From Lentisphaerota bacterium (GTDB lineage: Bacteria; Verrucomicrobiota; Lentisphaeria; Victivallales; UBA1829): 64,000 nucleotides of DNA. Below, one piece after another: positions 42,243 to 64,000 of this stretch. Under the pieces are notes generated by a model, which saw only the letters and a program-made list of their open reading frames with translations, was not told the origin of the DNA and made no database searches. The stretch lies in the NCBI GenBank assembly GCA_015061565.1, contig SUWI01000001.1:21505-85504 (forward strand), given 5' to 3'. Within the stretch, counting starts at the first letter, position 1; each line of letters starts with the position of its first letter. The position numbers and the translations under genes are program-made.

Positions 42243-42243
42243 C

Positions 42244-47458: not shown

Positions 47459-47459
47459 T

Positions 47460-48368: not shown

Positions 48369-48435
48369 GAGATCATTGTTTTTTTGTAAAAATGCTGTAT
48401 ATTGACAACTCCATCCAACAACTGGAGTTATTGAC

Positions 48436-48933: not shown

Positions 48934-50101
48934 AAAACGCCCGCTGGTGGCGCCTCATATCGCTTCGCTTCCCAAGAGCGGCATCCGCGATTTCTTCGAC
49001 TTGGTCAGCACCATGAAGGACGTGATCTCGCTCGGTATCGGTGAACCGGATTTCGTCACCCCGTGGAATATCCGCGAAAATGCTCTTTATTCCATCGAAC
49101 GCGGCCATACCCATTACACTTCCAACCTCGGAATGCTGCCGCTGCGCAAGGAGATCTGCAATTATCTCGCCTCGGATTTCCAAGTCAATTACGACCCGGT
49201 CAGCGAATGTATCGTCACGGTCGGCGTGAGTGAGGCGCTGGACCTGGTCATCCGCGCCATCACCAGTCCCGGCGATGAAATCGTCTACCACGAACCCTGC
49301 TATGTTTCCTACAATGCCGAGGTGAAAATGGCGCACGGCGTGCCTGTGGCGGTCGAAACCCGCGAGGAGAATGATTTTTCGCTCGATCCGGACGATCTGG
49401 AAAAAGCCATTACCTCAAAAACCCGCGCGATCCTGCTGAATTTTCCGTGCAATCCCACGGGCGCCACGCTGACCATGGAACAGACCAAACGCATCGCCGA
49501 CATTGCCGTCAAACATGATCTGATCGTGCTTGCGGACCATATTTATTCCGAGCTCACTTACGGTGACATGACGCCTCCGATCGCCTCCCTGCCCGGCATG
49601 AAGGAACGGACCGTCTTCCTGCACGGATTTTCCAAAGCGTTCGCCATGACCGGATTCCGCATCGGCTACGCCTGCGGCCCGGCGGCGATCATCGATGCCA
49701 TGATGAAGATCCATCAGTATTCCATGCTCTGCGCTCCGATCACCGCCCAGGAAGCCGCGCTCGAAGCTTTGCGGTCCGGACGGCCCGATATGGAAGCGAT
49801 GTGCCTCGAATACCGTGACCGCCGCAATGTGATCGTCGACGGTTTCAATTCAATGGGACTGCATTGTTTCAAGCCCGAAGGCGCGTTTTATGTCTTCCCG
49901 AACATCACTTCCACTGGTTTGAGCTCAATGGAGTTTGCTAAAAAACTCCTGATGAGCAGGAAAGTGGCGGTGGTTCCGGGTTCCGCTTTCGGTCCCTGCG
50001 GCGAAGGTTTCGTCCGCTGTTCATACGCCACTTCCATGGAAGGGATCAAGGAAGCTCTGCAGAAAATCGGCGAATTCATTAAAGAGTTGCCGAAAGCTTG
50101 A
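48908..50101 (+). CDS. Class I/II PLP-dependent aminotransferase
   Basis: SLGIGEPDF, NPTGATL, PLP-lysine region FSKAFAMTGFRIGY. Overlaps the Lrp/AsnC gene by 26 nt. Confidence 0.85.
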   Translation: MNGSKSHPEKRPLVAPHIASLPKSGIRDFFDLVSTMKDVISLGIGEPDFVTPWNIRENALYSIERGHTHYTSNLGMLPLRKEICNYLASDFQVNYDPVSECIVTVGVSEALDLVIRAITSPGDEIVYHEPCYVSYNAEVKMAHGVPVAVETREENDFSLDPDDLEKAITSKTRAILLNFPCNPTGATLTMEQTKRIADIAVKHDLIVLADHIYSELTYGDMTPPIASLPGMKERTVFLHGFSKAFAMTGFRIGYACGPAAIIDAMMKIHQYSMLCAPITAQEAALEALRSGRPDMEAMCLEYRDRRNVIVDGFNSMGLHCFKPEGAFYVFPNITSTGLSSMEFAKKLLMSRKVAVVPGSAFGPCGEGFVRCSYATSMEGIKEALQKIGEFIKELPKA

Positions 50102-50139
50102 ATTCTGACGGATTTCATTCATAAAAAAGGGGGTAATTT

Positions 50140-51672
50140 ATGAAAAAAAACGTCCTGCTGGTTCTGTTCTGTTTGACCGGAATGCTTTCCGCATCCGTTC
50201 CGGAATGGAAATACACGCTCAGTAAAAACGAAATCAGAATTACCGCATCAGTTCCGGCCAACGAGTACCTTTACCGGAAAGAAACTGACGCCGAACTGAC
50301 GGCTGACGGGATGGCTGTCAAGCCCGTCACTTTTCCGTCAACTGTGACGCATGAGGATGAATTTTCCGGCAAAACGGAAATTTATCCGGGCGGCAAGCTC
50401 CTGACCTGGGTTTTCCGTTCGGAGAAATGGAATTTTCCGTTGAAATTCAAGGTGAAATGGCAGGGCTGTTCCAAGGGAACTCCCAACGAACCTGGGGTGT
50501 GTTTCATGCCGGGTTCCGGCGAAATGACGCTCCGGAATTTCCAAGCTGTTTCCGCTCCGAAAGTCATGACTTTCGAACCGACGGAAGAACCGCTTTCCTC
50601 CCCTGCCCCGAATGCGGATTTTCCCAAGTTCGAAATCATCAGGGCCGAATCGGGATTTATCGGAGCGCCGCAGTTCGTCCAGTTTCTCAAGGGGGAAAAA
50701 CGGGAATTGTTTCTGAGTTTTGCCGGCAAAAATTTCTGGCTGATCCTGCTGCTGACCTTTCTCGGCGGCATCGCTCTGAACCTGACTCCGTGCGTGCTGC
50801 CGATGATCCCTATCAATCTGGCGATCATAGGGGCGAGGGACGGTTCCCGCTGGAACTGCATGTTCCGCGGTCTGGTTTACGGTGCGGGCATCGCGTTGGC
50901 CTACGGCATCCTCGGAATAGTGGTCGTGGTGACGGGCAGCAGTTTCGGCGTGATCGATTCCGCCTGGTGGTTCAATGCGCTGGTTGCGCTGCTCTTTATC
51001 GGGCTGGGATTGTCCATGTTCGATGTCTTCATATTGGATTTTTCCCGTTTCAGTTCCTCCCTGCCGGGCATATCCGGTGCGCGTTATGCGGGTATTTTCC
51101 TGATGGGAGTGATAGCCGCCCTGCTGGCGGGAGCCTGCGTTGCGCCTGTGGTAGTGGCCGCCCTGCTGCAGTCGGGCAAGATGTATAATTCCGGAGAAAC
51201 GGCCGGTCTTTTCCTGCCGCTGGTTCTGGGATTGGGCATGGCCCTTCCCTGGCCGGTCCTGGCCGGCGGTTTTGCCGTCATGCCCAGGCCCGGAAACTGG
51301 ATGAAATGGGTAAAATATATATTTGGCGTAATAATTATCGGTCTCGGATTGTATTACGCGTTCCTGTCCTATGAAATCGTCACTTCCAAATCCGATGATT
51401 CCGGGAAAAGCATCGATTTATTGAAAGAGTCACTCGGTCGATCGGCCAGGGAAAAGAAGCCGGTGCTGCTGGATTTCCGGGCCGAATGGTGCAAGAACTG
51501 CAAAGCCATGGAACAGACCACTTTCAAGGATCCGGCAGTGATTGACGAACTTAAAAACTTCATTTTCGTCAAATTTGACGCCACGGAAATCTCCGATCCG
51601 GCAATCAGTTCCGTCCTGAAAAGATTCCAGGTCTCCGGCCTTCCCGCCTACCTGATCGTTCAGGGAAAATAA
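50140..51672 (+). CDS. DsbD-like thiol:disulfide interchange protein (CcdA-type TM core plus C-terminal thioredoxin)
   Basis: Signal peptide and N-terminal periplasmic domain. TM core LNLTPCVLPMIPI. C-terminal thioredoxin fold with WCKNCK. Confidence 0.8.
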   Translation: MKKNVLLVLFCLTGMLSASVPEWKYTLSKNEIRITASVPANEYLYRKETDAELTADGMAVKPVTFPSTVTHEDEFSGKTEIYPGGKLLTWVFRSEKWNFPLKFKVKWQGCSKGTPNEPGVCFMPGSGEMTLRNFQAVSAPKVMTFEPTEEPLSSPAPNADFPKFEIIRAESGFIGAPQFVQFLKGEKRELFLSFAGKNFWLILLLTFLGGIALNLTPCVLPMIPINLAIIGARDGSRWNCMFRGLVYGAGIALAYGILGIVVVVTGSSFGVIDSAWWFNALVALLFIGLGLSMFDVFILDFSRFSSSLPGISGARYAGIFLMGVIAALLAGACVAPVVVAALLQSGKMYNSGETAGLFLPLVLGLGMALPWPVLAGGFAVMPRPGNWMKWVKYIFGVIIIGLGLYYAFLSYEIVTSKSDDSGKSIDLLKESLGRSAREKKPVLLDFRAEWCKNCKAMEQTTFKDPAVIDELKNFIFVKFDATEISDPAISSVLKRFQVSGLPAYLIVQGK

Positions 51673-51679
51673 ACACCGA

Positions 51680-51745
51680 TGACGGATAATTGACGGAACG
51701 ATGACGGGCCTTGATTTTCCAGATTGACGGTCTTTCGATCCGTCA
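51680..51745 (+). repeat. TGACGG(A/G) x3 with 11-bp period, plus a TGACGG/CCGTCA inverted pair
   Basis: TGACGGA 51680 and 51691, TGACGGG 51702, then TGACGG 51725 / CCGTCA 51740. Nearly collinear with the 709-737 array. Confidence 0.6.
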
Positions 51746-52310
51746 TTGAAGATCTATAAAAATAATGAATGTAATATTTCATTTCAGAAAAGATCGTATC
51801 CGCCATAAAATCTCAGAGTTGCCGCTGGCAGCCTGCCGGATTACAGTCCGTTTATCTAAACCGATCCGATGAAAAAACGCTCTTATGTCTCTTTGTCGAA
51901 AGATGTGGAAAATCAACCGGACAACGGGAGAAAAAAACCATATCCTTTCACCCTCTGACAAAAAATGACAGACCCTTTGGTGTATATTATTTGACAACAG
52001 AAAATTCGTAATGAGCCGGAACGGGTCCGGTTCGACGGTCCTCTGTGCCGAAAAAGGATCGCCCTCGTTTGAACTCGGCGAATTTTTAACGAAAGGAACT
52101 GACGGCGATGATTGATTTCATTTGGTCGTGCATTGTTGAGGTTGTCCGTAATGGCGACCAGCACTAGTTGCGGTTAATATTTCGAGTCGGTAACCGACTC
52201 ACTCTATGAGTAAGCACGTTCCGTACTCTGTCGAAGAACGGAACTATTTGAACTGCGGAAGACGCGGAAGCGTCATTTTGATTATTTGTTTTACTGAATT
52301 TGATGACAGA

Positions 52311-52349
52311 GCCGCATCCGCCGGATGCGGGTGCGGCGTATTTTTATTT
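52311..52349 (+). terminator. Rho-independent terminator-like hairpin plus T-tract
   Basis: GCCGCATCCGCCGGATGCGGGTGCGGC has nested stems CCGCATCC/GGATGCGG and GCCGCA/TGCGGC. It is followed by GTATTTTTATTT and lies 35 nt upstream of the ATG at 52385. Confidence 0.55.
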
Positions 52350-52384
52350 CGGTCAAAAAGTCCAACAACAAAATGGAGAAAAAA

Positions 52385-53206
52385 ATGCTAACAGAGTATA
52401 TCAAAACCGCCCTGACAAAGAATAATATCCAATACACGAAGGATGAAGACTCCTTCAATTTCAAACACCCGCTGTGTCCGAAGTTCGTGGACTGCCTCAT
52501 CACCTGGGAGGAAACGCGCAAACAGATACAGCTCGTTGCCGATTACGAGATCAAGATGCCGGCGACTCTGAGTAATGAGGAATTTGCAGCAATGCTCAAT
52601 GACCTGAATTACGACAGCAGCTGGGGAAATCTCGAAACGGATCGGCACGGACTTCTTGTCTACCGTCTTGAGACCTTCCTGCCGGACGGGCGTGATGCCG
52701 CCGTGGAAATCTGTTCCAGGGCGCTGGAGTATTTCCGGATGGCACCCATATTACAGTTCAGGAAAGTGGAAATACGGCTGAATCAGATCCACGAAAATGA
52801 ATCGAGCAGGAATATGTGCCGCGCCATGCCGGAATCGCTGAGAAGCGGCGTTATCGAACTGGAATGCATGCACCACCGTATTATGCAAATGGCGGAAACC
52901 GCCGACATCCTCTTCGATGAATTCCAGCTCGTCAACCAGGACGCCATGACGCAAACCCGTCTCGGCGACGCAGGAAAAGAGCGGGTGAAACGGGATGCCC
53001 GGGTTCTGCGGCAGGAGGAAGAGAAACTTCACGCTGATATCCGGGCTTTCGCGACCCGTTATCGTCTCCCGCTGAACTTGAAGGAATTGCCCGGCGGCTG
53101 GACTCTGCACGGATTCCGAAAGGATTTCGCGCTCACCGGTTTCCTCAATACGGCGCTGACGGACCTTTTTATTGCTCTCTGCGGAGGAAATCACCATGCC
53201 GCATGA
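52385..53206 (+). CDS. Hypothetical protein; N-terminal half weakly resembles the YbjN/T3SS-chaperone-like fold, C-terminal half is helical
   Basis: RBS GGAGA 5-6 nt before MLTEYIKTAL. N-terminal pattern IQYTKDEDSFNFKH...LITWEE...IQLVADYEIKMPA...LVYRLETFL. Fold assignment is by eye only. Confidence 0.5.
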   Translation: MLTEYIKTALTKNNIQYTKDEDSFNFKHPLCPKFVDCLITWEETRKQIQLVADYEIKMPATLSNEEFAAMLNDLNYDSSWGNLETDRHGLLVYRLETFLPDGRDAAVEICSRALEYFRMAPILQFRKVEIRLNQIHENESSRNMCRAMPESLRSGVIELECMHHRIMQMAETADILFDEFQLVNQDAMTQTRLGDAGKERVKRDARVLRQEEEKLHADIRAFATRYRLPLNLKELPGGWTLHGFRKDFALTGFLNTALTDLFIALCGGNHHAA

Positions 53207-53810
53207 CGATCGATTCTGGAAGTGGCCGCTCAGCCGCGAGATTTTTTTCGCTCCGGCCACGGCGGTCGGCGTGCGATGGACTTTTCTCGGACACCGCGAA
53301 TGGGGCTTTTCGCTGGACCGCAGATGGATCGTCTATCGTGACGGCGTGATCGGATGGGAGATGCTCCGGCGATGCCGCAATATTTCGATTCTGGCGCTGG
53401 AAAACAAGCCTCGCGGATTTCGCGGCATCGTCCCGAAACTCCGCGGGCTGGCAGAAGAAGCGAAAACTTTCGACCGGACATGGGACTTCCTGAAGGCGGT
53501 TTTCGACATCCCGGAAAACGAGATGCCGTATCTGCCCGAACTGCTGATCCGCCGTTATGGTGAAATCGCCTGGCATCCCTATGCACCCAGCCTGAATCCG
53601 AAGCGACGGTTCGTCGGCGACAGCATGATCGAAACCAGCGAACTGGAAGGCGACCTTCCGCTCACGACCCGCTGGGAGATCCATCACTGGAAATGCGAAT
53701 GTGACAGGAAGCTGGTCAGTTTTCAGAAAATACCGCACTGGGTATATCATTCCAGCGTGTGTCATCCTCGCTGTATCTGCGGAAAAATCGTGCAAAATCG
53801 GGAATCGTAA
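53196..53810 (+). CDS. Hypothetical protein with C-terminal Cys/His cluster
   Basis: RBS GGAGGA before MPHDDRFWKW. 11-nt overlap with the upstream gene. C-terminus HHWKCECDRK...HSSVCHPRCICGK suggests a zinc-binding module. Confidence 0.5.
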   Translation: MPHDDRFWKWPLSREIFFAPATAVGVRWTFLGHREWGFSLDRRWIVYRDGVIGWEMLRRCRNISILALENKPRGFRGIVPKLRGLAEEAKTFDRTWDFLKAVFDIPENEMPYLPELLIRRYGEIAWHPYAPSLNPKRRFVGDSMIETSELEGDLPLTTRWEIHHWKCECDRKLVSFQKIPHWVYHSSVCHPRCICGKIVQNRES

Positions 53811-53822
53811 CTTGTAACCAAC

Positions 53823-53865
53823 CCTCCGCCGGAGTAAATTAAGGAAATCCGGCGGAGGAAATTTT
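53823..53865 (+). terminator. 11-bp perfect hairpin CCTCCGCCGGA/TCCGGCGGAGG followed by AAATTTT
   Basis: 14-nt loop. Located between the stop at 53810 and the ATG at 53877. Confidence 0.45.
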
Positions 53866-53876
53866 GGAGAAAGAAA

Positions 53877-54608
53877 ATGACAAAAGAAGAATCGTTTTGG
53901 AACATTGCAGAAAATGTATTGAAAGACATGCTTCAAAAATTACCTGGACTTTGCCCGGACCAGTATGTTCTTCAAATATTCAAATTAAAAGGACAACCGC
54001 AAAACCCGGAAAGTGTTTTCCCAAAAAGCAAAAGAATAGATATATTTGAACAAGATACGCTGGACCTTACGGATGTTTTTGGAAATATTCTCACGTCTCC
54101 AAAAGTCAAATCTCCTTTCATGATTTTTATCCTTGAATCTCCGCACAAAAAGGAATTTGATAAGAATGGAAAACCCATTGGTCCTGCAATGGGAAATACA
54201 GGAATAAACATCAGAGAACACATTCGGGAAAATTTCAGAAAGCACATTAAACACTTTCAAAACTATCACTTGATATTAATGAATGCCATCCCGTTTCAAT
54301 GTTCACTTGGGGTAGAACCTCCAGGTTCTATTCGAGATGCGGTCTTTGACGCTGCTTGGGAAGATGAAAAAGTTGGAAAGTCTTTTTTCGAGGATAGATT
54401 AGACTCTCTGCTGAAAGCGTTACAAAAAAAGACTGTTGTCATTGTTAATGCCTGTACAGCGAGCAAAAGCAGAAAATCCAATGTTACAAAAGCAATACTA
54501 AAAAAACTGAATAAGTGGGTAAAAGAAGTTTGGGAAGTTCCGCATCCATCTTCACCTCATTGGTGCAAAGGGAAGAACTTTAAGAAGATATATACATCAA
54601 AGAGTTAG
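53877..54608 (+). CDS. Uracil-DNA-glycosylase-superfamily-fold protein (divergent), visibly AT-rich gene
   Basis: ILESPHKKEFDKNGKPIGPAMGNTG aligns by eye with the family-4 UDG motif GE.PG..E...G.PF.G.AG. LMNAIPFQC resembles N..KCRP. VPHPSSPHW resembles the HPS motif. About 80 aa of unique N-terminal extension. Confidence 0.5.
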   Translation: MTKEESFWNIAENVLKDMLQKLPGLCPDQYVLQIFKLKGQPQNPESVFPKSKRIDIFEQDTLDLTDVFGNILTSPKVKSPFMIFILESPHKKEFDKNGKPIGPAMGNTGINIREHIRENFRKHIKHFQNYHLILMNAIPFQCSLGVEPPGSIRDAVFDAAWEDEKVGKSFFEDRLDSLLKALQKKTVVIVNACTASKSRKSNVTKAILKKLNKWVKEVWEVPHPSSPHWCKGKNFKKIYTSKS

Positions 54609-54619
54609 ACTCAACGTTG

Positions 54620-54653
54620 TTCCCCGGTTTTGCAAGCATACAAAACCGGGGAG
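54620..54653. terminator. Bidirectional terminator hairpin between convergent genes
   Basis: TTCCCCGGTTTTG-caagcata-CAAAACCGGGGAG, 12-13 bp stem, followed by TTTTGCTT on the plus strand. Confidence 0.65.
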
Positions 54654-54660
54654 TTTTGCT

Positions 54661-55098
54661 TCATTCCTTTCCCGTGCTTCCGAAGCCGCCGGAGCCCCGG
54701 TCGGTTTCGGTCAGTTCGGCGACTTCCGTCAGCGTGACTTCCGGGAGTTTGCAGATCACCATCTGCGCGATGCGGTCACCTGTGCGGATGGGGAAGACAT
54801 CACTCCCGAGGTTGAAGAGGATCACTTTGACCTCGCCGCGATAGTTCGCATCGACCGTGCCGGGCGAATTGGTCACGGTGATATGGTGTTTCGCCGCCCA
54901 GCCGCTGCGGGGGCGGATCTGCGCCTCGTATCCGGGCGGCAGTTCCATCGCGAATCCGGCGGGGACGACCGCGCCGGAAAGCGGTTCGAGTTCGATATCC
55001 ACGCGGGAACGCAGATCGTATCCCGCATCATCATGATGTGCTTTGACCGGGAGGAAATCTTCGCATCCCGGCATGAGTTTGATCTTGATTTCTGTCAT
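54661..55098 (-). CDS. dut: dUTP diphosphatase
   Basis: HDDAGYDL, PRSG, GTVDANYRGEV, DRIAQ, C-terminal RGSGGFGSTG. Confidence 0.95.
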   Translation of the reverse strand: MTEIKIKLMPGCEDFLPVKAHHDDAGYDLRSRVDIELEPLSGAVVPAGFAMELPPGYEAQIRPRSGWAAKHHITVTNSPGTVDANYRGEVKVILFNLGSDVFPIRTGDRIAQMVICKLPEVTLTEVAELTETDRGSGGFGSTGKE

Positions 55099-55138
55099 GG
55101 TTTCCTCCGTTTTTCAAAGTTCTTTTTCAAAAGCATAG

Positions 55139-55954
55139 TCAGTCAGCAAAATGGGAAATGGATTCCGCCCGGTTTTTTTCTTCGAAATTCGTGTTGGAAA
55201 AAATGGCAATGCTGCGGTCATCATTGCCGCGGGGGTCTTTTGCCCAGCAGCCTCGGGTCAGATAATCCAGCAGGTTCTGTCGCGTCAGGTGCCCGGCAGA
55301 GCAGTCATCGAACATTTTGTTGAAGATCGGACCGGGGGTCATTTCCGCAAGGTTGAACATCAGGAATTCGGGGCCGTCGCTGGTAATCGCAATGCTGTTG
55401 ATGTCTTCTGACGCGACCATACAGGCATGATAATTACGGCGGATCGCCGCCTCGGGACGCAGGAAACGGGTTTCATTGTCGTATTCCCCTTTGTCCGGCG
55501 GAAAAAGCGAGTAACAGCATTCTTCACCCTCGCGGATGACGATGGCGCCGTCGCCGACCTGGAAGAAACCGCAGCGGGCTTTGCCCCAGACTGCAAACGC
55601 GATGGTGAAATCGAATTCGGATTCCGGACATTGATACTGCTCGACCAGTTCGATCTTCTGCTGGCAGACCGTGCGGATCATGATATTGCAGAAACGGAAC
55701 CAGCGGCGGTCGTTCCAGCGCTCGCAGTCCAGGATGGAATAAAGCAGACCATCCATCACGGCACACTGGCTGCGGAAGGCTTTCACCGCGGCCTGAGCGC
55801 CGAAATGGGAATAACGGGCGCTGCCGCGTCCGTCGCACACGATCAGGCATGGACGCGGTGCAAGCCACACGCCGGACGCATCCTGACAGGGGATCTCCCT
55901 GCGGATGTGTCCGTTGCCGGGAACCGAAACAGCGAATCCCCGGAAATCACTCAT
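55139..55954 (-). CDS. PP2C-family (PP2C_2-like) protein phosphatase, TerY-P-type
   Basis: VSVPGNGHIRREIPCQDASGVW...LIVCDGRGSARYSHFGAQAAV matches the G.sH...CQD...DG.GS pattern. ATGA overlap with the vWA gene. Confidence 0.8.
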   Translation of the reverse strand: MSDFRGFAVSVPGNGHIRREIPCQDASGVWLAPRPCLIVCDGRGSARYSHFGAQAAVKAFRSQCAVMDGLLYSILDCERWNDRRWFRFCNIMIRTVCQQKIELVEQYQCPESEFDFTIAFAVWGKARCGFFQVGDGAIVIREGEECCYSLFPPDKGEYDNETRFLRPEAAIRRNYHACMVASEDINSIAITSDGPEFLMFNLAEMTPGPIFNKMFDDCSAGHLTRQNLLDYLTRGCWAKDPRGNDDRSIAIFSNTNFEEKNRAESISHFAD

Positions 55955-56661
55955 TTTCCTTCCTCCAGCGCCGGGGTTCCGGCGAGGTCGGCCCAGGAAT
56001 TCACGTTGCCGAGCACGACGGCATCCTGCTGCGCCACGGAACTGGCGGAAACACTCTTAAGCGAATCGGTCAGCCATTTGAAGAACTCCTTGAAGCAGAG
56101 GCCTTTGAGTTTGACCGGTCCGGGATGTTCGGGCAGGATCTGACGCAGAGTGTCGAAATCGGCCTCGTCGCCGATGCCGATACCGATGTACTGCAGGCGC
56201 TTTTCCTCGCCGAGCTGTTTCATGGAAGCGGCGGCGTTTCTCCAGTCGTCGTTGGGACAGCCGTCGGTCATCAGAATGATCCACGGCTTGTAACTGGAGA
56301 TGCCTTTCTGTTTGTAGAGACGGCGGCGCGCCTTGAGTTCGGAATCTGCGAGTCTGAGGGCTTCGCCGAGCGGGGTGGAGCCGTTGGCTTCGAGGGCAGG
56401 CGGATTGTCGTTGACCACGTTGACCGGAGCGAACGGGGCCGCGATTTCGGCATTGCCGCCGAAGGTGATGACTTCGAGTTCCACGCTCATGCTGGCGGTC
56501 TCGTCGTCGCTGGTCTCACGCAGGAATTGAGAGAGACCTTCTTTGAGTTCGCGCAAGGGCGCGCCGGACATGCTGCCGGAGACGTCCAGCATCAGGATGA
56601 CGGGGCAGCGGGGCGCGGGATTGGTGACGTCGAGGGAGGTTTCTTCTGCGTAGTCGTTCAT
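55951..56661 (-). CDS. von Willebrand factor A (TerY-like) protein
   Basis: MIDAS DVSGSMSG, TPLGEAL, LMTDGCP. About 236 aa, like TerY. ATGA overlaps on both sides. Confidence 0.85.
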   Translation of the reverse strand: MNDYAEETSLDVTNPAPRCPVILMLDVSGSMSGAPLRELKEGLSQFLRETSDDETASMSVELEVITFGGNAEIAAPFAPVNVVNDNPPALEANGSTPLGEALRLADSELKARRRLYKQKGISSYKPWIILMTDGCPNDDWRNAAASMKQLGEEKRLQYIGIGIGDEADFDTLRQILPEHPGPVKLKGLCFKEFFKWLTDSLKSVSASSVAQQDAVVLGNVNSWADLAGTPALEEGK

Positions 56662-57779
56662 ACTACTTTTTCCTTTCTTTTGACTTTTTCGGGCAGGATC
56701 GCCCTTTGGTTGGGGTTTTTACTTGAACGCATTACGTTGATAAAGTTTTCGAGTTCGTTTTTGAGTTCGCCGAGCATGGGACGCTTCAGCGGCTCGTGGT
56801 GACCGTCCACAAACATCCGGATGAAGAGATGCTTCAATCCGGGCGTCAGCCAGCTCACCGATTTGTACCATCCGACGGGCAGGCGGACTCCGTCACGGCG
56901 GGCGAGGGGACATTTGCCGGATTTAAGGTTTTCGACCGGATCACCGCCGCCGCACTGGGCATAGGGATGCAGTCCGCTCATGAGGATCATGTAGACCACG
57001 ACTGCGAGGCTGAACCGCACCTGTTCGGGAGTCCGTTCCCGGTTGAAGAGTTCCGGATGGAACAGCAGTTCGGGTGCGGTGTATTCCGGCGTGAAGGTGC
57101 GGGTGAGAAACGTGTTCTGATTGTCGCCCGCGCCGGGGATCTGAAAACTGTCACAGTCAATGAGGCGGATACGGCCGAGTGGATCGACCAGGAAGTTGTC
57201 CGGATTGAAATCGTTGACGAGCACGCGGTGGCGTGCGAGCATCTGGACGGCGTTGACGAGATTGAGTGCGACCTTGGTCACGCTCAGGCGGTCCCAGCCG
57301 GGGAAGAAGCGTCTGACCTGGCAGGGAGCATAAAGTGCACGCAGAGTCCGTCCGGAATTTTTGCGCATGACGAAACCGATGACATTTTTATTCTGATCGA
57401 AAACGGGCATCAGAGGCCAGGCGAGGAACGGGGCGTTGCGGCATTCCACCAGTGCCAGCATCGCATTGAGACGGTCGCGGAAAGCGGCCAGTTTCCGGCT
57501 GTCGCGCAGTGTATCGTCCTTGCAGACTTTGATCAGGAAGGCGGGATTTTTCGCAAAACTGAAAATCACGCCTTCTCCGCCGTGCGCCAGGACATCCGAT
57601 TTCCGCAGCGACAGAGCCGCACCCATCGGATCATAGACGGTGCGGGAACGGTCCGGGGGAGCCTGAGCAAGAGCCAGCCAGTCGGCGCCGACGGGCGGGG
57701 CCTGTTGCTTCCTGCGCGCCGCCGGGCGGACAATCCGTCTCGGTGAAGAGGAAAACAGATGTGACCAGATGAAGTTCAT
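56658..57779 (-). CDS. Atypical Ser/Thr protein kinase-like protein
   Basis: Start MNFIWSHLF (ATGA overlap with the upstream stop). G-loop HGGEGVIF, lysine LIKV, catalytic loop VNDFNPDNFLV, LIDCDSF (DFG-like), TPEYTAPE. Confidence 0.75.
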   Translation of the reverse strand: MNFIWSHLFSSSPRRIVRPAARRKQQAPPVGADWLALAQAPPDRSRTVYDPMGAALSLRKSDVLAHGGEGVIFSFAKNPAFLIKVCKDDTLRDSRKLAAFRDRLNAMLALVECRNAPFLAWPLMPVFDQNKNVIGFVMRKNSGRTLRALYAPCQVRRFFPGWDRLSVTKVALNLVNAVQMLARHRVLVNDFNPDNFLVDPLGRIRLIDCDSFQIPGAGDNQNTFLTRTFTPEYTAPELLFHPELFNRERTPEQVRFSLAVVVYMILMSGLHPYAQCGGGDPVENLKSGKCPLARRDGVRLPVGWYKSVSWLTPGLKHLFIRMFVDGHHEPLKRPMLGELKNELENFINVMRSSKNPNQRAILPEKVKRKEKVV

Positions 57780-58300
57780 TCGGCAGCTTCTTCCTGTTCT
57801 TCTTCCGAGTCTTCGGCAGTTTCTTCCGGCAGATCGTAAGTCAGCCATTCGAACGAACCGAATTTCTTTTCGAGCGCATCATCGACTTTCGCAGCATCTT
57901 CCACGCCGAGACATTTCAGGACGAAGGTTTTCGTGGAGGGAAAACGTTCCTCTTCGACCGCGTTCCGGGCGGCAAAATCCACCTCATGGGAACCGACGGC
58001 GATACGTTTTTTTCCTGCGACCTTGAGCGTATCCGCGCTGTGCAGCGAGAGGAAATCTTCCAGGTCCATGTATTCGGGTTCTTTTTCGGCGTTCAGGGAG
58101 ATGATCTGCGTGCCGGTGAGAATGCCGTAATACTTTTTGCCGTCCGCCCGGCAATATGCCGTTGCGCCGGGACGCAGATATTTGACCGTTACGGTTTCGC
58201 GCAGATCCTCTTTGAGTTCATTCCATGCGTCTTCGATATCGCTGAACAGCTGTTTGGTCGCGTCCGAAAGACAATCCACAAATTCTTCAAAATCACTCAT
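57776..58300 (-). CDS. Hypothetical protein (174 aa) with acidic C-terminal tail
   Basis: RBS AAAGGAAG before MSDFEEFVD. Ends ...LPEETAEDSEEEQEEAAE. No domain recognised. Translationally coupled to the kinase. Confidence 0.55.
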   Translation of the reverse strand: MSDFEEFVDCLSDATKQLFSDIEDAWNELKEDLRETVTVKYLRPGATAYCRADGKKYYGILTGTQIISLNAEKEPEYMDLEDFLSLHSADTLKVAGKKRIAVGSHEVDFAARNAVEEERFPSTKTFVLKCLGVEDAAKVDDALEKKFGSFEWLTYDLPEETAEDSEEEQEEAAE

Positions 58301-58321
58301 TTTGCTTCCTTTCATTTTTTG

Positions 58322-58339
58322 CTGCCATACTCAATAATT
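58322..58339 (-). promoter_or_regulatory. Putative internal promoter/leader element (AATTATTGA-GTATGGCAG)
   Basis: Minus-strand ATTATTGAGTATGGCAGCAAAAAATGAAAGGAAGCAAAATG parallels the element at 59013-59031. Confidence 0.35.
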
Positions 58340-58394
58340 TCTGAATTACCATTTCACGAGTATAAGTGCTGTAATTCCGGGCAGGATATGCAAG

Positions 58395-58589
58395 TCACAC
58401 ATTCCAGACCGAGTTTTTGACCATTTTGACCTTGCATTTGGGGCAAACCGGCGGCCGGGAGGACCCGGAAAACAGCGGCAGGCAGGTATGGATCAGCGGA
58501 TTCGGCCGTTCCGTGGTGGCAGTTACCTTCCCGCATTTCGGGCATTTCCAGTGAACAGTCCGGATCGGCATTCGAACAAACGAACTCAT
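58395..58589 (-). CDS. Small zinc-ribbon protein (~64 aa)
   Basis: Two CxxC pairs, CPKCGK ... CPKCKVKM. ATG at 58589 forms an ATGA overlap with the upstream stop (a GTG at 58595 is also possible). Confidence 0.5.
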   Translation of the reverse strand: MSSFVRMPIRTVHWKCPKCGKVTATTERPNPLIHTCLPLFSGSSRPPVCPKCKVKMVKNSVWNV

Positions 58590-58990
58590 GCGCACATCTC
58601 CTGAAGTTGAAAAGCGCAGTCCTGAAGAGCAGACTGAAAATCCCCGATTTTGTCGCTGGTTTCGTAAAGCGCATCCGAGGTGCCGGATTTGCCGACTTTC
58701 CAGAGCTCATCGCTGATGTTCAAATCGGGAACGGCAGGGACGATTTCACTTTTTCCGAGCTGGGCGGCGATTGCGGCGAGGTCTTCGTGAATGGATTTCA
58801 GGAACCGCCACTCCAGCTGAAGTTCCTCAACGACCTTGCGTTTGTACGGAGTCATTTCTCCGGAATCTTCCTTCGAGACGCATCTGATTATTTTTTCCAT
58901 GATCTCGAAATCATGTTTCGTGGCGTCAAATCCCAGCGAGACCAGCGCCCACAGTTCCTGAGTGAGGATGTTTTTTTCTTTTTCCGTCAT
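58586..58990 (-). CDS. Hypothetical helical protein (134 aa)
   Basis: RBS AAGGAGA before MTEKEKNILTQELW. First gene of the minus-strand operon. No domain recognised. Confidence 0.55.
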   Translation of the reverse strand: MTEKEKNILTQELWALVSLGFDATKHDFEIMEKIIRCVSKEDSGEMTPYKRKVVEELQLEWRFLKSIHEDLAAIAAQLGKSEIVPAVPDLNISDELWKVGKSGTSDALYETSDKIGDFQSALQDCAFQLQEMCA

Positions 58991-59012
58991 GAGACCTTTC
59001 TCCTTTTTGATT

Positions 59013-59031
59013 CTGCCATACACCTATTATA
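59013..59031 (-). promoter_or_regulatory. Putative promoter of the six-gene operon (TATAAT -10 plus GTATGGCAG)
   Basis: Minus-strand ...CCGTATAATAGGTGTATGGCAGAATCAAAAAGGAGAAAGGTCTCATG. The -35 is weak. Confidence 0.45.
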
Positions 59032-59131
59032 CGGTGCACGGACTGGTTATTTATCGTGCGGGACGAAAAAATTTTCATTTTTCTTTAAGGGAATATAATT
59101 TCGAGCCTCTGCCATTTTGTGTCATCCGGGT

Positions 59132-59160
59132 TTGACATTATGAAATATTTGCAATATATT
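59132..59160 (+). promoter_or_regulatory. Sigma-70-type promoter of the WYL regulator gene
   Basis: TTGACA (59132-59137), 17-nt spacer, TATATT (59155-59160). ATG at 59185 preceded by AAAGGA. Confidence 0.55.
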
Positions 59161-59184
59161 ATCAAAAACGAAAGGATAAAAACA

Positions 59185-60177
59185 ATGCCGCTCAACAAAA
59201 AACAACTGATGCGTATGATCCGGTTCGTGGCGGAAATGCGGAAAAACAACTATCCCAACGCTGCCTCCTTTACGCGCATGCTCCGGGAAATGGATCTGAT
59301 CGAAAATCTCAATATTTCCTGTTCGGAACGCACCATCATGCGCGATCTGGATACGCTCCGGAAGGATTTCGAAGCACCCATTGCCTTTTCGCCGGAATAC
59401 AACGGATATTATCTCACCAATACCAGCTGGGAACTGAAAGTCCCGTTTATGGACGATGAAATGGTGATGTCCGCCATGCTGGGAGCTCAACTGGCGGAAA
59501 AGATCATGCCGTCGCCGGTCAAGGAACAGATCCGGGACGCGGTGGACAATTCCATTGCGGACAACAATTCCGAACTGCTGGACCGGACGTACATCGAAAC
59601 CTTGCTGATCGCCTCCTGCGGCAAGACGACCATCCCGCCGGAAATCTTCGGCACGGTTTTCCAGGCATGGCGGGAACGGCACGTGCTGCATCTGACCTAC
59701 CGGAAAGGCAATACCGGCGAGGTCTCCGAACGCGATTTCGAACCGCATATCGTGGCGTATCACAAAGGCAACTGGTATCTCAAGGGAGTGAACCTTGCCG
59801 ATGACAAAGTGATCGTGCTGGCGATCTTCCGGATCCAGAAGGCGGAAATCACCCGTTTCGAGTTCAAAATCCGCAAAGACATTCTGAAACAGACGGAGAA
59901 AGAAGGTCTGTTCAATTATCCGAAAATCGAAAACATCCGCGTGAAATGCGCGCCTGAAATCGCCTATTATCTTTACGAGCAGCAGAAGGCGAAGAAACTC
60001 GCCATTACTCCGCAGGAGGACGGTTCGCTGATCGTGGTTCTGCCGCCGTCGACGGAAGCGGATGCGCTCCACTGGATTCTGGGTGAAGCCGGCAATGTCG
60101 AGGTGCTGGAACCGCAATGGCTGCGGGAAAAAATCTATGCTCTGGCACAAAAAACTGCGGAGCTCAACCGGGTCTGA
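59185..60177 (+). CDS. WYL-domain transcriptional regulator (wHTH-WYL-WCX architecture)
   Basis: N-terminal HTH LMRMIRFVAEMRKNNYPNAASFTRML...SERTIMRDLDTLR. Central WYL region LTYRKGNTGEVSERDFEPHIVAYHKGNWYLKG. C-terminal extension. Confidence 0.85.
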   Translation: MPLNKKQLMRMIRFVAEMRKNNYPNAASFTRMLREMDLIENLNISCSERTIMRDLDTLRKDFEAPIAFSPEYNGYYLTNTSWELKVPFMDDEMVMSAMLGAQLAEKIMPSPVKEQIRDAVDNSIADNNSELLDRTYIETLLIASCGKTTIPPEIFGTVFQAWRERHVLHLTYRKGNTGEVSERDFEPHIVAYHKGNWYLKGVNLADDKVIVLAIFRIQKAEITRFEFKIRKDILKQTEKEGLFNYPKIENIRVKCAPEIAYYLYEQQKAKKLAITPQEDGSLIVVLPPSTEADALHWILGEAGNVEVLEPQWLREKIYALAQKTAELNRV

Positions 60178-60585
60178 ATAAAAAGACCGACTCCTGCCGA
60201 TAATATTACCGGAAATTTATATTATCCGGAAACCTGCCATATCCATTTATCATGCGGCAAAATCCAACGGAACACCGCTCTGCGGGAAAGCGCATCTGCT
60301 TTGCTGTGACATCATTTTTATCGTAAGCAGGAACCGTTTCGGGTTGTGCGCGACTTGCCGGATGAATTTCATCCCGCAGACGATGCGCAGGAACGTTTTG
60401 ACAGCTGCCGGCCGAAGTGGCGCAGAGCCGATGAACCGGATACGTCCGATCGGAAAGAGATCCGTGTTTTCCGGGAAGGGGGATTATATGTCATCCAAGT
60501 GAAGACCGGGATGTTTCCGATGCCGCCGTTGTGGTTTGCGAAAAGAACCTGAGGCCGGATCAGATCGGCTATCTGGAAGACGCCG

Positions 60586-61278
60586 TCAAGTGAGCAGCTG
60601 ATATTCTGCGGGGGTGAGTTCGCGCATTTCGCCGGGCGTGAGGGATTCATCCAGGGACAGCGGCCCGATTTTCACCCGTTTGAGATAAATCACCTCTTTG
60701 CCGATCTGTTGGCACATCCTTTTGACCTGATGGAATTTGCCTTCGGCGATTTCGATGAAGACTTTTTTCGGATCGCCGGGGATTTCCAGAACTGCGGGCT
60801 GGGCGGTAAAATCCTGAAATTTCATTCCGGCGCGGAATTTTTCGATATCTCCGGGTTCCGCCGGACGGTCCAGTTCGGCATAATAGCGTTTCATGATTTT
60901 TTTCTTCGGGGACATCAGAGCATGATCGAACTGTCCGTCGTTGGTGAGCAGGAGCAGCCCTTCGGTATCCTTGTCCAGTCGTCCGACGGGAAACACTTTG
61001 AAATGTTTCCATTCTTCGGGGATCAGGTCAATGACCACGGGATCATGTTTATCTTCGGTGGCGCTCAGGTATCCGGCGGGTTTGTTGAGCATGAGATAAA
61101 TGAATTTCCGATATGGGATGAGTTTGCCGTTGAGTTTGACTTCATCGGTTTCACGGACCTGAAAATCGGCCGACGGCGCTACGGTGCCGTTCACCGTGAC
61201 CGCGCGGTAACGGATCAGTTTCCTGATTTCGCTGCGGCTGAGGGCCGCGGAATCCGAAATGAATTTGTCCAGTCTCAT
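60586..61278 (-). CDS. rsuA: Pseudouridine synthase, RsuA/RluB family (S4 domain plus catalytic domain)
   Basis: Start MRLDKFISDSAALSRSEIRKLI (S4). Catalytic PVGRLDKDTEGLLLLTNDG. Confidence 0.85.
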   Translation of the reverse strand: MRLDKFISDSAALSRSEIRKLIRYRAVTVNGTVAPSADFQVRETDEVKLNGKLIPYRKFIYLMLNKPAGYLSATEDKHDPVVIDLIPEEWKHFKVFPVGRLDKDTEGLLLLTNDGQFDHALMSPKKKIMKRYYAELDRPAEPGDIEKFRAGMKFQDFTAQPAVLEIPGDPKKVFIEIAEGKFHQVKRMCQQIGKEVIYLKRVKIGPLSLDESLTPGEMRELTPAEYQLLT

Positions 61279-61537
61279 ACAGCTCCCTGATGTTCGGATA
61301 CAGGAAAAATATATCCGGGAAAGACGAAAAAGCAAGTGAAAAATCAAAAAAGAATGTACGGGAAAAAAACCGGACAGAACAGTCTGATGTTTTTCCATGA
61401 TTCATCAGCGGGATGCCGGACTGTTTCTATAAAATATAATAGAATATTTGATTTTCTCCTTGAAAACAGAACGAAACTGTGATAAATTATTGCTTATAAA
61501 AAAGTATTTGAAAATCTATCCGGTAATCAGGTGCAGA

Positions 61538-64000
61538 GTGTTTTTTTCTAAACGGAAGACAACCATCAAATCAATGCTGACGCTTCTGGCGGCTGGTGGG
61601 TTATTGTTGTCTCTGCATGGCGGACCGATCGGGGGTTCGGGCGGCATATCGGGTCTTGGCGGCATAAACAACCTGAAAGATTCTTTTCAACTGCCTCAGA
61701 TCGGCTCTTTGAACCAGGAAGACATCGATATGAGTGCGGACACCTATGAATACATCGGGTCCAATCTGGTTGCACGAGGTCATGCGGTGATCAAAGTGAA
61801 AAATCTTCAGGTTACCGCGGATGCGATCACGGTCAATCTGCTGACCAAAGACTTGGAGGCTGCGGGGAATGTGACCTTTGCGACGCAGGTGTTCGAAAAA
61901 CGGAATCTGACGCCGGAACAGTATGAGAAACTGATGGAGCAGCCGGCATACAAGGTCATAGCCGAGGGAATCAGTACCAAACCGGACGGGAATCAGACGA
62001 TCCTGGCGACAGTGATTTCGAACTGTGCGTACCTGTCGGCGGAACGTGCTTCGGGGAGCATGGAAACGGGAGCGTTCCAGTTCCGGAATTTCTTCATCAA
62101 AGCTGGGTACATGTATTTTCGTGGATTTCTGGCTGAACGTTATCCGAACGGGACGGTCAAGATGTTTGATTCACGGATGACGACATGCGAATATGAAATG
62201 GATTCGAATGCCCATTACGGGATCAAGTCTTCGGTGATGACGCTGAAACCGAGGGAATCGAACCGGAGCATTCATAACTACAATCCGGATATGGGTGAGC
62301 ACAGTCTGCTGATGCTGAGTGATTTCATCAATGTATGGAATGTGCCGGTTTTCTGGCTGCCGGCGTTGTATAAACCGGCAGATTCCAATTCTTTCGGCAT
62401 ACGGTTTGAATTCGGCGACGCTTCGGGCTGGGGATATTATCTGAGGACCCTGAAGGAATTTGACATCATAGAAGAACCTGCCGTGATCCGAGCGGGGCTG
62501 ATGGTGGATTATTATTCAAATCGCGGACTGGGGATGGGCACCTCGGTCGATATTCTGACGGCCAATTCGAAAACGGAACTGTTCGCCTATTATCTGCATG
62601 ACCGCAATCCCTACAATTACTGGGATAAAGCACGGAACAAAGTGGAAGACGGCTGGACCGATAAGGAATGGTTTGCGCAATACGGCCGCTATGAATTGCC
62701 GAATGACCGGTATGAATTCCGGCTGGCGAATCTGACCCATCTGACGCCGCGACTGGATTTTCGCGGAGTAGTTGACGTCATCAGCGATTTCAATTTTCTG
62801 GAAGATTTTTTTGAATCCCGTTATAATGAGAATGAACAGCCTCCGTCTTATGCGGCAGTGGAATATCAGGGTGAACATTTTTCCGCCACGCTGCAGACGA
62901 CCTTCCGGGTAAACGACTTTTACACCACGATGGAACGGCTGCCGGAACTGCGGATCGATATCTTCCGGCAGGAACTTTTCAAAAATATCTATTACCAGGG
63001 TGAAACCTCGGCCGGATTCTACCGTACCAAGTGGCAGAAATATGATTTTCCGCGCGGAATGAATCCCAATCTGAACATTCCCGCTCTGCTGATCAAAGAA
63101 AATAAGACCTATCTATGGAGCGAAATTGTCAAGCGGTATGGCATAACCAATAAATACGGCGCTTCAAAATACCTGGCGGCGGAGGATCCGGAAGCCTTTG
63201 CGGGATATTTTGAGGATCCGAAAGATTATTCATCCTATCGGTTTGATACCCTTCACGCTCTGTATTACCCGATTCAGCTCTTCGGATTCCTGAATTTGAT
63301 CCCTCGCGCGGTCGGCCGATTCACTGCTTATTCCGATTCCTCGAAAAAAGCGATGGATGTGGAAGATCTCTATACCATGTATGCGCTGGATGAAAAATAC
63401 AAATGGCCCAATTATGAGATCAAAGCGGTGAATTATGATGACAAGGGCGGGGCACGCTACCGTTTCGCTGTTGAGCTGGGATTGGAGGGAAATGTCAAAC
63501 TTTCCCGAGCCTGGCAGACCCCGCGCAACGCTTACTGGGAGATCGACGGACTCCGGCATGTCGCAGTTCCGTATTTCAACCTGATCTATATTCCGAAACC
63601 CACGGAGGATTATCAGCATCTTTATTATTTTGATGAAGTTGACCAGATCGAAGAAACCGCATTTGTCCGGCTCGGCATCCAGAATCGTCTGCAGACCCGT
63701 CGGAATAATCGCCTGTATCAGTGGATATCCATGGAAAATTATTGGGATTTCCATTTCAACAAGTCCAAAGATTTCAATCATATCGGTGATCTCGGAACGA
63801 TTTTCAGGTTTACCCCGACTAGCAAACTGTCATTTTTCACGGAATTCCTTCTGGATGTCGGCAACAACAACGATCACGATTTTGAGGTTTACCGCAAAGG
63901 CGAAAGTGTCGGCCGGCCGGGCTTAAGCTGGAAACTGATCAACAAATTCAACGCCGGTTTCAGTTATCAATTCGCTACGGACTGGCGTTTAACTCTCAAT
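61538..64000 (+). CDS. lptD: LPS-assembly outer-membrane protein LptD/OstA-like (3' end outside window)
   Basis: Open frame with no stop before the window end, so it is absent from the ORF track. GTG 61538 or ATG 61574 gives signal peptide ...KSMLTLLAAGGLLLSLHG. OstA-N-like ADTYEYIGSNLVARGHAVIKVKNLQVTADAITVNL...AAGNVTF. Beta-barrel-like sequence through the end. Confidence 0.7.
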   Translation, partial: MFFSKRKTTIKSMLTLLAAGGLLLSLHGGPIGGSGGISGLGGINNLKDSFQLPQIGSLNQEDIDMSADTYEYIGSNLVARGHAVIKVKNLQVTADAITVNLLTKDLEAAGNVTFATQVFEKRNLTPEQYEKLMEQPAYKVIAEGISTKPDGNQTILATVISNCAYLSAERASGSMETGAFQFRNFFIKAGYMYFRGFLAERYPNGTVKMFDSRMTTCEYEMDSNAHYGIKSSVMTLKPRESNRSIHNYNPDMGEHSLLMLSDFINVWNVPVFWLPALYKPADSNSFGIRFEFGDASGWGYYLRTLKEFDIIEEPAVIRAGLMVDYYSNRGLGMGTSVDILTANSKTELFAYYLHDRNPYNYWDKARNKVEDGWTDKEWFAQYGRYELPNDRYEFRLANLTHLTPRLDFRGVVDVISDFNFLEDFFESRYNENEQPPSYAAVEYQGEHFSATLQTTFRVNDFYTTMERLPELRIDIFRQELFKNIYYQGETSAGFYRTKWQKYDFPRGMNPNLNIPALLIKENKTYLWSEIVKRYGITNKYGASKYLAAEDPEAFAGYFEDPKDYSSYRFDTLHALYYPIQLFGFLNLIPRAVGRFTAYSDSSKKAMDVEDLYTMYALDEKYKWPNYEIKAVNYDDKGGARYRFAVELGLEGNVKLSRAWQTPRNAYWEIDGLRHVAVPYFNLIYIPKPTEDYQHLYYFDEVDQIEETAFVRLGIQNRLQTRRNNRLYQWISMENYWDFHFNKSKDFNHIGDLGTIFRFTPTSKLSFFTEFLLDVGNNNDHDFEVYRKGESVGRPGLSWKLINKFNAGFSYQFATDWRLTLN

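Follow-up and report, generated by a model that had tools for sequence, protein, structure and literature searches.

TerY-P systems consist, in the sections of the literature cited here, of a von Willebrand factor A (vWA) protein resembling TerY, a PP2C-type phosphatase and a serine/threonine (Ser/Thr) kinase (PMC11090510, PMC4978471; citing Anantharaman et al. 2012). They have been proposed to act as phosphorylation switches, and TerY-P-like modules occur also as stand-alone anti-phage systems (PMC11090510, PMC7699616). In the stand-alone anti-phage form the kinase is fused C-terminally to an OB fold, and in the form linked to CoCoNuT systems the kinase is fused to a zinc ribbon (PMC11090510). 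Here we analyze a locus with the same three protein families on the minus strand of a 64,000-nt stretch of contig SUWI01000001.1 from a Lentisphaerota bacterium (GCA_015061565.1); the whole stretch is called the window, and positions are given within it. The original prediction, made from the sequence of this DNA, had called the three genes a TerY-P triad and the locus a defence island; a TerY-P triad was reportedly validated as an anti-phage system by Gao et al. in 2020.

Two further sets of genes are important for the comparison. In E. coli, YegI is a Mn-preferring, autophosphorylating Ser/Thr kinase, its residues K39 and D141 and its D-S-D motif are essential in vitro, and, also in vitro, PphC dephosphorylates YegI and YegI phosphorylates PphC (bioRxiv 10.1101/819920, 10.1101/303594). 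In Actinobacteria, sets of kinase, PP2C and vWA genes have been linked to GAP1-N2-type GTPases (Kaur et al. 2020, PMC7159879).

We lean towards the view that the locus in the window is a six-gene accessory operon under the control of a WYL regulator, which would form a defence or stress module of the TerY-P/YegLKI class that is inducible and gated by phosphorylation. The assignment of the phosphorylation module to this class appears highly probable in itself. The triad consists of a YegI-type (COG4248-like) Ser/Thr protein kinase of 373 aa (56658-57779), a stand-alone TerY/YegL-type vWA protein of 236 aa with an intact metal-ion-dependent adhesion site (MIDAS; 55951-56661), and a PP2C_2-family Ser/Thr phosphatase of 271 aa, which is the final gene of the operon (55139-55954). 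Pfam confirmed the three families, with E-values of 6.7e-9 for Pkinase (above the gathering score), 3.4e-11 for VWA and 6.3e-10 for VWA_2, and 9.9e-32 for PF13672. The motifs that had been picked out beforehand are all present in the translations, i.e. GGEGVIF, VNDFNPDN, DCDSF and TAPE in the kinase, DVSGSMSG, TPLGEAL and LMTDG in the vWA protein, and GHIRREIPCQDA and CDGRGSA in the phosphatase. NCBIfam yielded only generic kinase and vWA matches for the triad proteins, far below the cut-offs, and a sequence search of the PDB retrieved no solved structure of a close relative of any of the three.

The two predicted ATGA start/stop overlaps within the triad were seen in the sequence. At 56658-56661 the end of the kinase (KVV) overlaps with the start of the vWA protein (MNDY), and at 55951-55954 the end of the vWA protein (EGK) overlaps with the start of the phosphatase (MSDF). 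A third ATGA overlap joins the kinase to the upstream gene for a 174-aa protein (57776-57779), and a fourth joins the genes for a 134-aa protein and a zinc-ribbon protein further upstream (58586-58589). Overlaps of 4 bp are frequent in operons and unremarkable by themselves; the four ATGA overlaps of this operon indicate a putative translational coupling of the genes concerned. The open reading frame (ORF) of the kinase could extend up to 57848, and its start was nevertheless assigned to 57779 (MNFIW), as in the original prediction, because homologues of 372-377 aa cover 100% of the query and because this start generates the ATGA overlap. The protein comprises the kinase domain alone. According to Pfam and the family alignment it has no transmembrane, helix-hairpin-helix (HhH), OB or zinc-ribbon extension, and the C-lobe is followed only by a short basic tail. 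Long ORFs are also found antisense to the triad on the plus strand (55849-56802, 56796-57746 and 55427-56143; 238-317 aa), which are most probably not genes but artefacts that the high G+C content of this region (57-58%) brings about.

All three proteins are homologous to proteins of the E. coli YegL/PphC/YegI locus. In BLASTP searches the vWA protein was 45% identical to YegL (E = 7e-49), which we take to be the 'TerY-type vWA' of the COG collection, the kinase was 30% identical to the kinase domain of YegI (E = 3e-25), and the phosphatase was 27% identical to PphC/YegK (E = 4e-18). The alignment of the kinase spans residues 7-224 of YegI plus weak segments, and it has no counterpart of the YegI region from about 300 to 648, which contains the two-pass membrane segment and the HhH region. 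Residues K84, D190 and D208-C-D210 of the kinase correspond to K39, D141 and the D-S-D motif of YegI. K84, D190 and D208-x-D210 are invariant in the family alignment and are kept in 77 of 78 to 80 of 80 related loci. The MIDAS residues D26, S28, S30, T96 and D133 of the vWA protein are kept in all 75 loci, and the metal-binding residues D25, D41 and D135 of the phosphatase in all 65. This conservation of catalytic, MIDAS and metal-binding residues therefore suggests that kinase, vWA protein and phosphatase are all active. The best homologues were found in metagenome-assembled genomes (MAGs) of rumen or gut Lentisphaeria (Victivallales), and close homologues of the kinase bear a COG4248-type name in the JGI annotation.

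The similarity to the E. coli locus thus includes the families of all three proteins, an atypical Hanks kinase with a D-x-D motif replacing DFG, and genes joined by 4-bp overlaps. The differences concern the kinase, the gene order and the additional genes. YegI (648 aa) also contains a membrane segment with two passes and, at its C-terminus, an HhH region, whereas the kinase of the window is a soluble domain of 373 aa. The order is vWA-PP2C-kinase in E. coli and kinase-vWA-PP2C in the window. Furthermore, the E. coli locus belongs to the core genome and lacks the WYL regulator, the LRAT-fold gene and the zinc-ribbon gene that accompany the operon in the window. In the yegL-pphC region of E. 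coli (K-12 positions 2151711-2153128; locus L006, with related loci designated by L and a number throughout), 1777 of 5416 E. coli records are only 90-95% identical to K-12. This divergence is unusual for a core locus, and it fits the PphC allelic differences that have been reported between B and K strains.

The kinase has relatives in at least 568 loci in a scan with one genome per species. The gene neighbourhoods of 86 loci, i.e. the 80 best and loci collected earlier, were mapped with tblastn. In essentially every mapped locus that was long enough to show them, the vWA and PP2C genes adjoin the kinase gene, and the approximately 80 loci with the triad are distributed over Lentisphaerota, Kiritimatiellae, Gammaproteobacteria, Melainabacteria, Bacteroidota and Acidobacteriota. 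As far as these gene maps tell, the recurrent adjacency of the three families is more than chance. Four gene orders were observed. The order of the window, kinase-vWA-PP2C, occurs in Lentisphaerota, and a version with a second vWA gene in front (vWA2-kinase-vWA-PP2C) in Lentisphaerota and Kiritimatiellae. Halomonas/Billgrantia and other Gammaproteobacteria have vWA-kinase-PP2C, and Melainabacteria, Bacteroidota, Acidobacteriota and E. coli have vWA-PP2C-kinase. Several copies per genome also occur (L019 and L024 are from one MAG, L025 and L036 from another). The three genes are conserved together, and the actual unit in the window is a six-gene operon with a WYL regulator.

The slot upstream of the kinase differs among the relatives and is occupied by a double GTPase, by a vWA protein that weakly matches NYN or by a 200-aa protein. 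The four-gene variant (L004:1111-2310, with equivalents in L023-L040) is led by a divergent vWA protein of 399 aa. The C-terminal region of this protein has a weak match to the Zc3h12a/NYN RNase family (E = 0.001, under the gathering score), and the protein could represent the fusion of an effector with a second vWA domain. In L019 (4901-7957), the genes immediately upstream of the kinase encode a protein of 154 aa and a double P-loop GTPase of 841 aa; the GTPase matches septin, dynamin, MMR_HSR1, DUF697 and the PADLOC models mad8, LeoA and LeoBC-like. A septin-like gene of 491 aa is present in L002 past its WYL gene. In L002-type loci, the kinase is preceded by the gene for the 200-aa protein; this protein was considered as a homologue of the 174-aa protein of the window and was rejected, since the two are only 24% identical with large gaps.

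The hallmarks of the TerY-P architecture, i.e. a MIDAS-containing vWA protein with PP2C and kinase alongside in a neighbourhood that is conserved across distant lineages, were all found. Judged by architecture and homology, the locus is a member of the broad TerY-P architectural class and of its YegL/PphC/YegI branch. Its core is, on the same grounds, a predicted reversible Ser/Thr phosphorylation switch of the TerY-P/YegL-PphC-YegI type. With the TerY-P triads of CoCoNuT systems (type II and III-A, McrBC-related) it shares the three families and a zinc ribbon associated with the kinase (PMC11090510). However, CoCoNuT kinases carry the zinc ribbon as a C-terminal fusion, whereas in the window an optional gene of its own, two genes upstream of the kinase, encodes it (64 aa), and the CoCoNuT triads are embedded in CnuH/CnuE/McrBC operons, whereas the window has no McrBC/CoCoNuT genes. 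Neither McrBC-like nor HEPN-like genes are among the Pfam-assigned flanking genes. The actinobacterial sets of Kaur et al. share kinase, PP2C and stand-alone vWA protein with the window, and the related locus L019 likewise has a GTPase directly upstream of the kinase; they differ in lineage and kinase architecture, and the window has no GTPase.

The TerY name might imply a sensor of metal or tellurite stress belonging to a Ter system. The vWA protein is indeed of the TerY/YegL type with a metal-binding MIDAS, and TerY-P was first described amid ter clusters, according to the passage that reports this (cited in PMC11090510). However, neither the examined region of the window nor the related loci that were inspected contained TerB, TerC, TerD, TelA or the associated biosynthetic genes. 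Since ter genes are thus missing from these sequences, a role in tellurite resistance was discarded, and we consider it very improbable.

Upstream of the triad, the operon contains three additional genes, all on the minus strand. The first gene of the operon encodes a helical protein of 134 aa (58586-58990). Its start was assigned to the ATG at 58990 (MTEKEKN), which is preceded by AGGAG, because the alignment of the orthologues from 8 loci begins at MTEKEK. The second gene encodes a 64-aa zinc-ribbon protein with two CxxC pairs and weak zinc-ribbon matches in Pfam and NCBIfam (58395-58589). It is a variable member of the operon, which is kept in L001, L007, L009, L013, L091 and L093 and missing in L008, L010, L011 and L018. 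The third gene encodes the 174-aa LRAT-fold protein (57776-58300), which could also start at 58315 (179 aa) and which is ATGA-coupled to the kinase. Neither the 134-aa nor the 174-aa protein had a match in Pfam, NCBIfam, PADLOC or PHROGs.

A regulator gene is located divergently to the operon on the plus strand (59185-60177). It encodes an HTH-WYL-WCX protein of 330 aa (start MPLNKK) with Pfam matches to WYL (3.4e-14) and WCX (1.8e-15) and a weak match to HTH_11, and the PADLOC WYL model recognized it with 2.3e-29. The regulator accompanies the operon in most loci of the window type. WYL regulators of defence operons include BrxR of BREX and CapW of CBASS. The protein of the window shares with such regulators the HTH-WYL-WCX architecture and the divergent position next to the presumed target operon. 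In contrast, no close sequence kinship to any characterized WYL member was found, and PafBC was its only sequence relative in the PDB (E = 3e-5). The divergent region between operon and WYL gene has a length of 194 bp and contains a conserved block (59095-59165) with repeated ATGTCA/TGACAT elements over divergent sigma-70-like promoters. Promoter-like matches were found at 59132-59160 (plus strand, 11 of 12 positions) and at 59165-59137 (minus strand, 10 of 12 positions). The block has about 25 invariant columns in an alignment of 7 loci, the kinases of which are only 54-72% identical. The divergent region contained only short repeats and no palindromic operator. The block is thus a candidate for a shared promoter and operator that would be bound by the WYL regulator.

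The 174-aa protein is composed of an N-terminal helix, an LRAT/NlpC-P60-fold domain and an acidic tail. Its family is small; only 24 representatives (at 50% identity) were present in a set of 1.84 billion proteins. When 20 of its members were scanned with Pfam at E <= 10, LRAT was not matched, and a comparison of the family profile with PDB sequences gave only chance matches to MurA. The link to LRAT therefore rests on profile-profile and fold evidence. The profile was compared with that of the 178-aa proteins encoded directly after PP2C in L002-type loci, which have a Pfam LRAT match of 5.6e-6, and with a diverse alignment hhalign gave a probability of 95.6% and an E-value of 1.1e-8 over 118 columns. 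The AlphaFold (AF2) model based on the diverse alignment had a pLDDT of 83, with values of at least 95 for residues 45-160. It replaced a model from a shallow alignment, which had a pLDDT of 54 and no significant fold matches. The top Foldseek matches in the PDB all fall into the LRAT/permuted NlpC-P60 group; they were YiiX, H-REV107, AdPLA, HRASLS3 and PLAAT3 (probability 0.89-1.0, TM-score <= 0.63, E >= 4e-3), with probabilities of 0.98-1.0 for the first four.

The protein is thus predicted to share the permuted papain-like fold, along with homologous profiles, with the LRAT/PLAAT/YiiX branch of NlpC-P60. However, these enzymes have a His-His-Cys catalytic triad, whereas the corresponding positions of the 174-aa protein are Y62, S73 and T128, none of which is conserved in its family, and the protein has the N-terminal helix and the acidic tail in addition. 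Only R48, G50, F88, V99, G108, A116, C135 and W157 are invariant in the family. Because the catalytic positions are replaced and not conserved, the 174-aa protein is a putative catalytically dead LRAT-fold paralogue, i.e. a pseudoenzyme. Domain combinations occur on both sides of this relationship. A metagenomic member of the dead-LRAT family (P0248, 584 aa) is a fusion, in which BspA-type leucine-rich repeats are followed by Sel1/TPR repeats and these by the 174-aa-type domain, and the active LRAT-like protein adjoining the WYL gene in L011 has C-terminal Sel1 repeats.

L001, L002, L008-L011, L015-L018 and L091 have LRAT-like genes at a distance of no more than 5 kb from the operon. None was detectable in the window with tblastn. 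The copy in the window could therefore be viewed as a decaying, effector-less relic that has kept intact switch genes and has lost active LRAT-like output genes. The related loci L091 and L092, which occupy the same chromosomal site, have three LRAT-like genes around the operon, one of them directly after PP2C; in L091 two of the three keep the full His/His/Cys triad and the third has retained the Cys together with the first His. The similarity of the window to L091 stops just before the PP2C stop codon, where the block with the dut gene starts, and one relative has already lost the whole operon. However, six ORFs and the regulator are intact in the window, the start/stop overlaps are preserved, and all catalytic residues of the triad are retained, which does not fit decay. 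In addition, PP2C is not directly followed by an LRAT gene in L093, L094 and the loci of the L001 type either, and therefore LRAT genes may be optional neighbours and not an obligate output. We regard a relic as improbable.

The operon resides on a dispensable, fast-changing island. The accessory segment has a length of 8,872 bp (51698-60569) and is located between dsbD and rsuA, with its borders defined by blastn against L087 and L088. These two loci (L087 is from GCA_965125445.1) align to 42077-51697 and to 60570-63985 of the window at about 90% nucleotide identity, and they have 360 bp in place of the 8,872 bp (L087:10709-11070; L088:1040-1401). The 360-bp filler encodes frameshifted PP2C fragments, which correspond to residues 126-153 and 199-253 (E = 1e-19). 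Because the PP2C remnants are still present, the island must once have existed in the lineage of L087 and L088 and have been deleted later. This deletion also speaks against core conservation with housekeeping synteny in all relatives, which had been named as an outcome contradicting the original prediction. L091 and L092, with a kinase that is 91% identical to that of the window, have a version of 14.7 kb at the same dsbD/rsuA site, which lacks dut and whose additional genes include the three LRAT-like ones and one for an RtcR-type activator. The flanks of L091 are about 90% identical to those of the window, whereas the operon is only about 82% identical at the nucleotide level, and in other relatives the operon is found in unrelated contexts. 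The deleted site, the 14.7-kb allele, the lower identity of the operon and the unrelated contexts together indicate that the operon is accessory, mobile or recombining, and faster-evolving than its surroundings. Direct repeats of at least 9 bp, tRNA genes, an integrase or Rfam elements were not found at the island borders.

The remaining cargo of the island consists of three genes downstream of the triad. The dut gene (dUTPase; 54661-55098) is encoded on the strand of PP2C, from which it is separated by 40 bp on the downstream side. Beside it are genes for a 243-aa protein (53877-54608), which had no match in Pfam, NCBIfam, PADLOC or PHROGs, and for a YbjN-like protein (52325-53206). The same trio follows the operon also in L011 and L018, and it is missing at the dsbD-rsuA site in L087 and L091. 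On one side the island is flanked by genes for DsbD, an aminotransferase, AsnC, CdsA, a SIS protein, RecF, GltD and GltB, on the other side by the rRNA pseudouridine synthase gene rsuA and a gene for a large protein without a family match. The large ORF (61574-64000, plus strand) encodes more than 808 aa with a signal-peptide-like N-terminus and runs past the end of the window; it had no Pfam match at 1e-5, and its place beside rsuA is conserved in L087 and L091 (932-970 aa). An LptD-like identity was rejected, because it lacked Pfam support.

In the relatives, the association of the operon with defence genes is strong, as judged from the genes encoded nearby. In L093 and L094, the kinases of which are 88% identical to that of the window, a TIR-domain protein and a cassette with an IetA-like AAA+ protein (PADLOC 7e-27) are encoded on the regulator side of the operon. 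In a MAG of the Victivallaceae (L022:1399-14194) the triad is located between BREX PglZ/BrxL (E = 0 and 3e-285) and a Cas13b-like protein of 994 aa; the PADLOC models for Cas13b match it with their N-terminal third (E = 2e-28). L010 has a type I restriction-modification methyltransferase near the operon, and 149 neighbouring ORFs of relatives include Cmr6, CARF, Cas1, LeoBC-like and PDC candidate genes. The cassette of L093 (745-8475; also present in L094 and in L007:769-6412) comprises six minus-strand genes beside the TIR protein and the triad operon. They encode proteins of 146, 173, 427 and 244 aa, the IetA-like AAA+ ATPase and, last, the WYL protein. The 427-aa and 244-aa proteins have a repeated N-terminal domain in common and no family matches. 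This may be an undescribed defence cassette.

Several observations weigh against a defence module of the TerY-P type. The PADLOC models for TerY-P (PADLOC-DB v2) recognized none of the three proteins: the TerY model reached only E = 0.042 on a part of the vWA protein, and at E <= 10 the phosphatase had no match and the kinase had only weak generic matches to mad6, PD-T4-6 and MkoA. The OB-fold fusion, a trait of the validated Gao-type systems, is absent from the kinase according to Pfam and the family alignment. Neither Pfam nor PADLOC revealed a second defence system in the window, and the copy in the window has no recognizable effector, i.e. no active LRAT protein, nuclease or pore-forming protein. 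The proposed operator is only a conserved block, and the kinase substrates, the WYL ligand and the MIDAS ligand are all inferred. Lastly, 5415 of 5426 complete E. coli genomes (99.8%) contain the homologues, which are thus core genes there; the physiological role of YegL/PphC/YegI is not known, and transcription of the locus was not seen (bioRxiv 10.1101/819920, 10.1101/303594).

These points narrow the two labels that the locus had been given. The TerY-P label holds for the architecture, with all three families adjacent, and it does not extend to a match with the PADLOC models or to an OB fusion. Stand-alone anti-phage TerY-P systems share the three-part vWA/PP2C/Ser-Thr kinase architecture with the window, but they have the kinase-OB fusion, and the window has three more coupled genes and a WYL regulator. 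Because the PADLOC models fail and the kinase has neither an OB nor a zinc-ribbon fusion, the triad of the window lies outside the validated Gao-type subtype. The E. coli YegL, PphC and YegI proteins are likewise missed by the PADLOC TerY-P models. The term defence island applies to relatives, in which the operon is found beside defence genes. It was not shown for the window itself, because there is no second defence system, the cargo consists of dut, the 243-aa gene and the YbjN-like gene, and, apart from the cargo, the genes within about 15 kb of the island are housekeeping genes.

An alternative that takes up several of these points is ordinary physiological Ser/Thr signalling, for example in response to the envelope, metals or the growth state, with no role in phage defence, so that the island and the neighbouring defence genes would be incidental. 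The near-universal chromosomal location of the closest characterized homologues in E. coli would agree with this, as would the triad of Halomonas/Billgrantia, which is found at a similar distance from the contig end in many species, the failure of PADLOC to detect the triad and the dut and housekeeping genes around it in the window. However, a physiological pathway does not readily account for the loss of the operon in a near relative with a PP2C remnant, for the differently composed island at the same site in another, for several copies in some genomes or for TIR, IetA-like, BREX, Cas13b-like, type I restriction-modification and type III CRISPR genes as neighbours in relatives. The accessory slot is variable, and the operon has an attached WYL regulator, which is typical of defence operons. 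Purely physiological signalling therefore seems rather unlikely to us. Inducible anti-phage or stress defence is the most likely biological role of the operon; a role against phages in particular we find equally easy to accept and to doubt.

If the locus is such an inducible defence or stress module, it might work as follows. The WYL protein would hold the operon repressed until a ligand appears, which, by analogy with other WYL regulators, could be a nucleic acid or a nucleotide that signals damage or infection. The kinase would then autophosphorylate and phosphorylate its partners, for which the dead LRAT-fold protein is a candidate along with the vWA protein and the phosphatase, and the phosphatase would reset the switch, as PphC does to YegI in vitro. 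MIDAS sites of vWA domains bind extended peptides (PMC7159879). The metal site of the vWA protein might thus grip an extended peptide, acidic or phosphorylated, that belongs to a partner or target, for instance the acidic tail of the 174-aa protein. Close relatives probably use, as their output, an active hydrolase or acyltransferase of the LRAT/NlpC-P60 type that is encoded beside the operon. The copy in the window would have lost active LRAT genes or never had them, and would keep the inactive paralogue as an adaptor or decoy; it would either work without active LRAT genes or be partly disabled.

A more specific version of this mechanism would be an undescribed defence system of Lentisphaeria, in which a TerY-P-type switch controls lipid or peptide hydrolases of the LRAT/NlpC-P60 type. 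The dead LRAT paralogue coupled to the kinase would be a phospho-regulated sensor, decoy or inhibitor, and the MIDAS would read its phosphorylated or acidic tail. We put this version forward as a speculation and consider it doubtful. If it is true, it would be the first concrete input-output wiring for any triad of the TerY-P/YegLKI type.

The triad class and its architecture were already known. New here are a triad of the YegLKI branch with a minimal kinase, three coupled extra genes that include a putative LRAT-fold pseudoenzyme, the WYL regulator and the alleles of the island. The kinase-vWA-PP2C triad is widespread, with at least 568 related loci and core status in E. coli, and it is listed among anti-phage systems; we know of no account of what it senses, phosphorylates or switches on. 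The hidden Markov models of the defence finders now in use overlook a large branch of the triad family. The locus offers several possible handles on the triad: a WYL regulator of its own together with a candidate operator that is conserved, a kinase that is reduced to its catalytic domain, three coupled accessory proteins, among them an apparently dead LRAT-fold protein that is a paralogue of enzymes flanking the operon in sister genomes, and natural alleles with, without and with an expanded version of the island at one chromosomal site. These handles make hypotheses about the input and the output of the triad testable.

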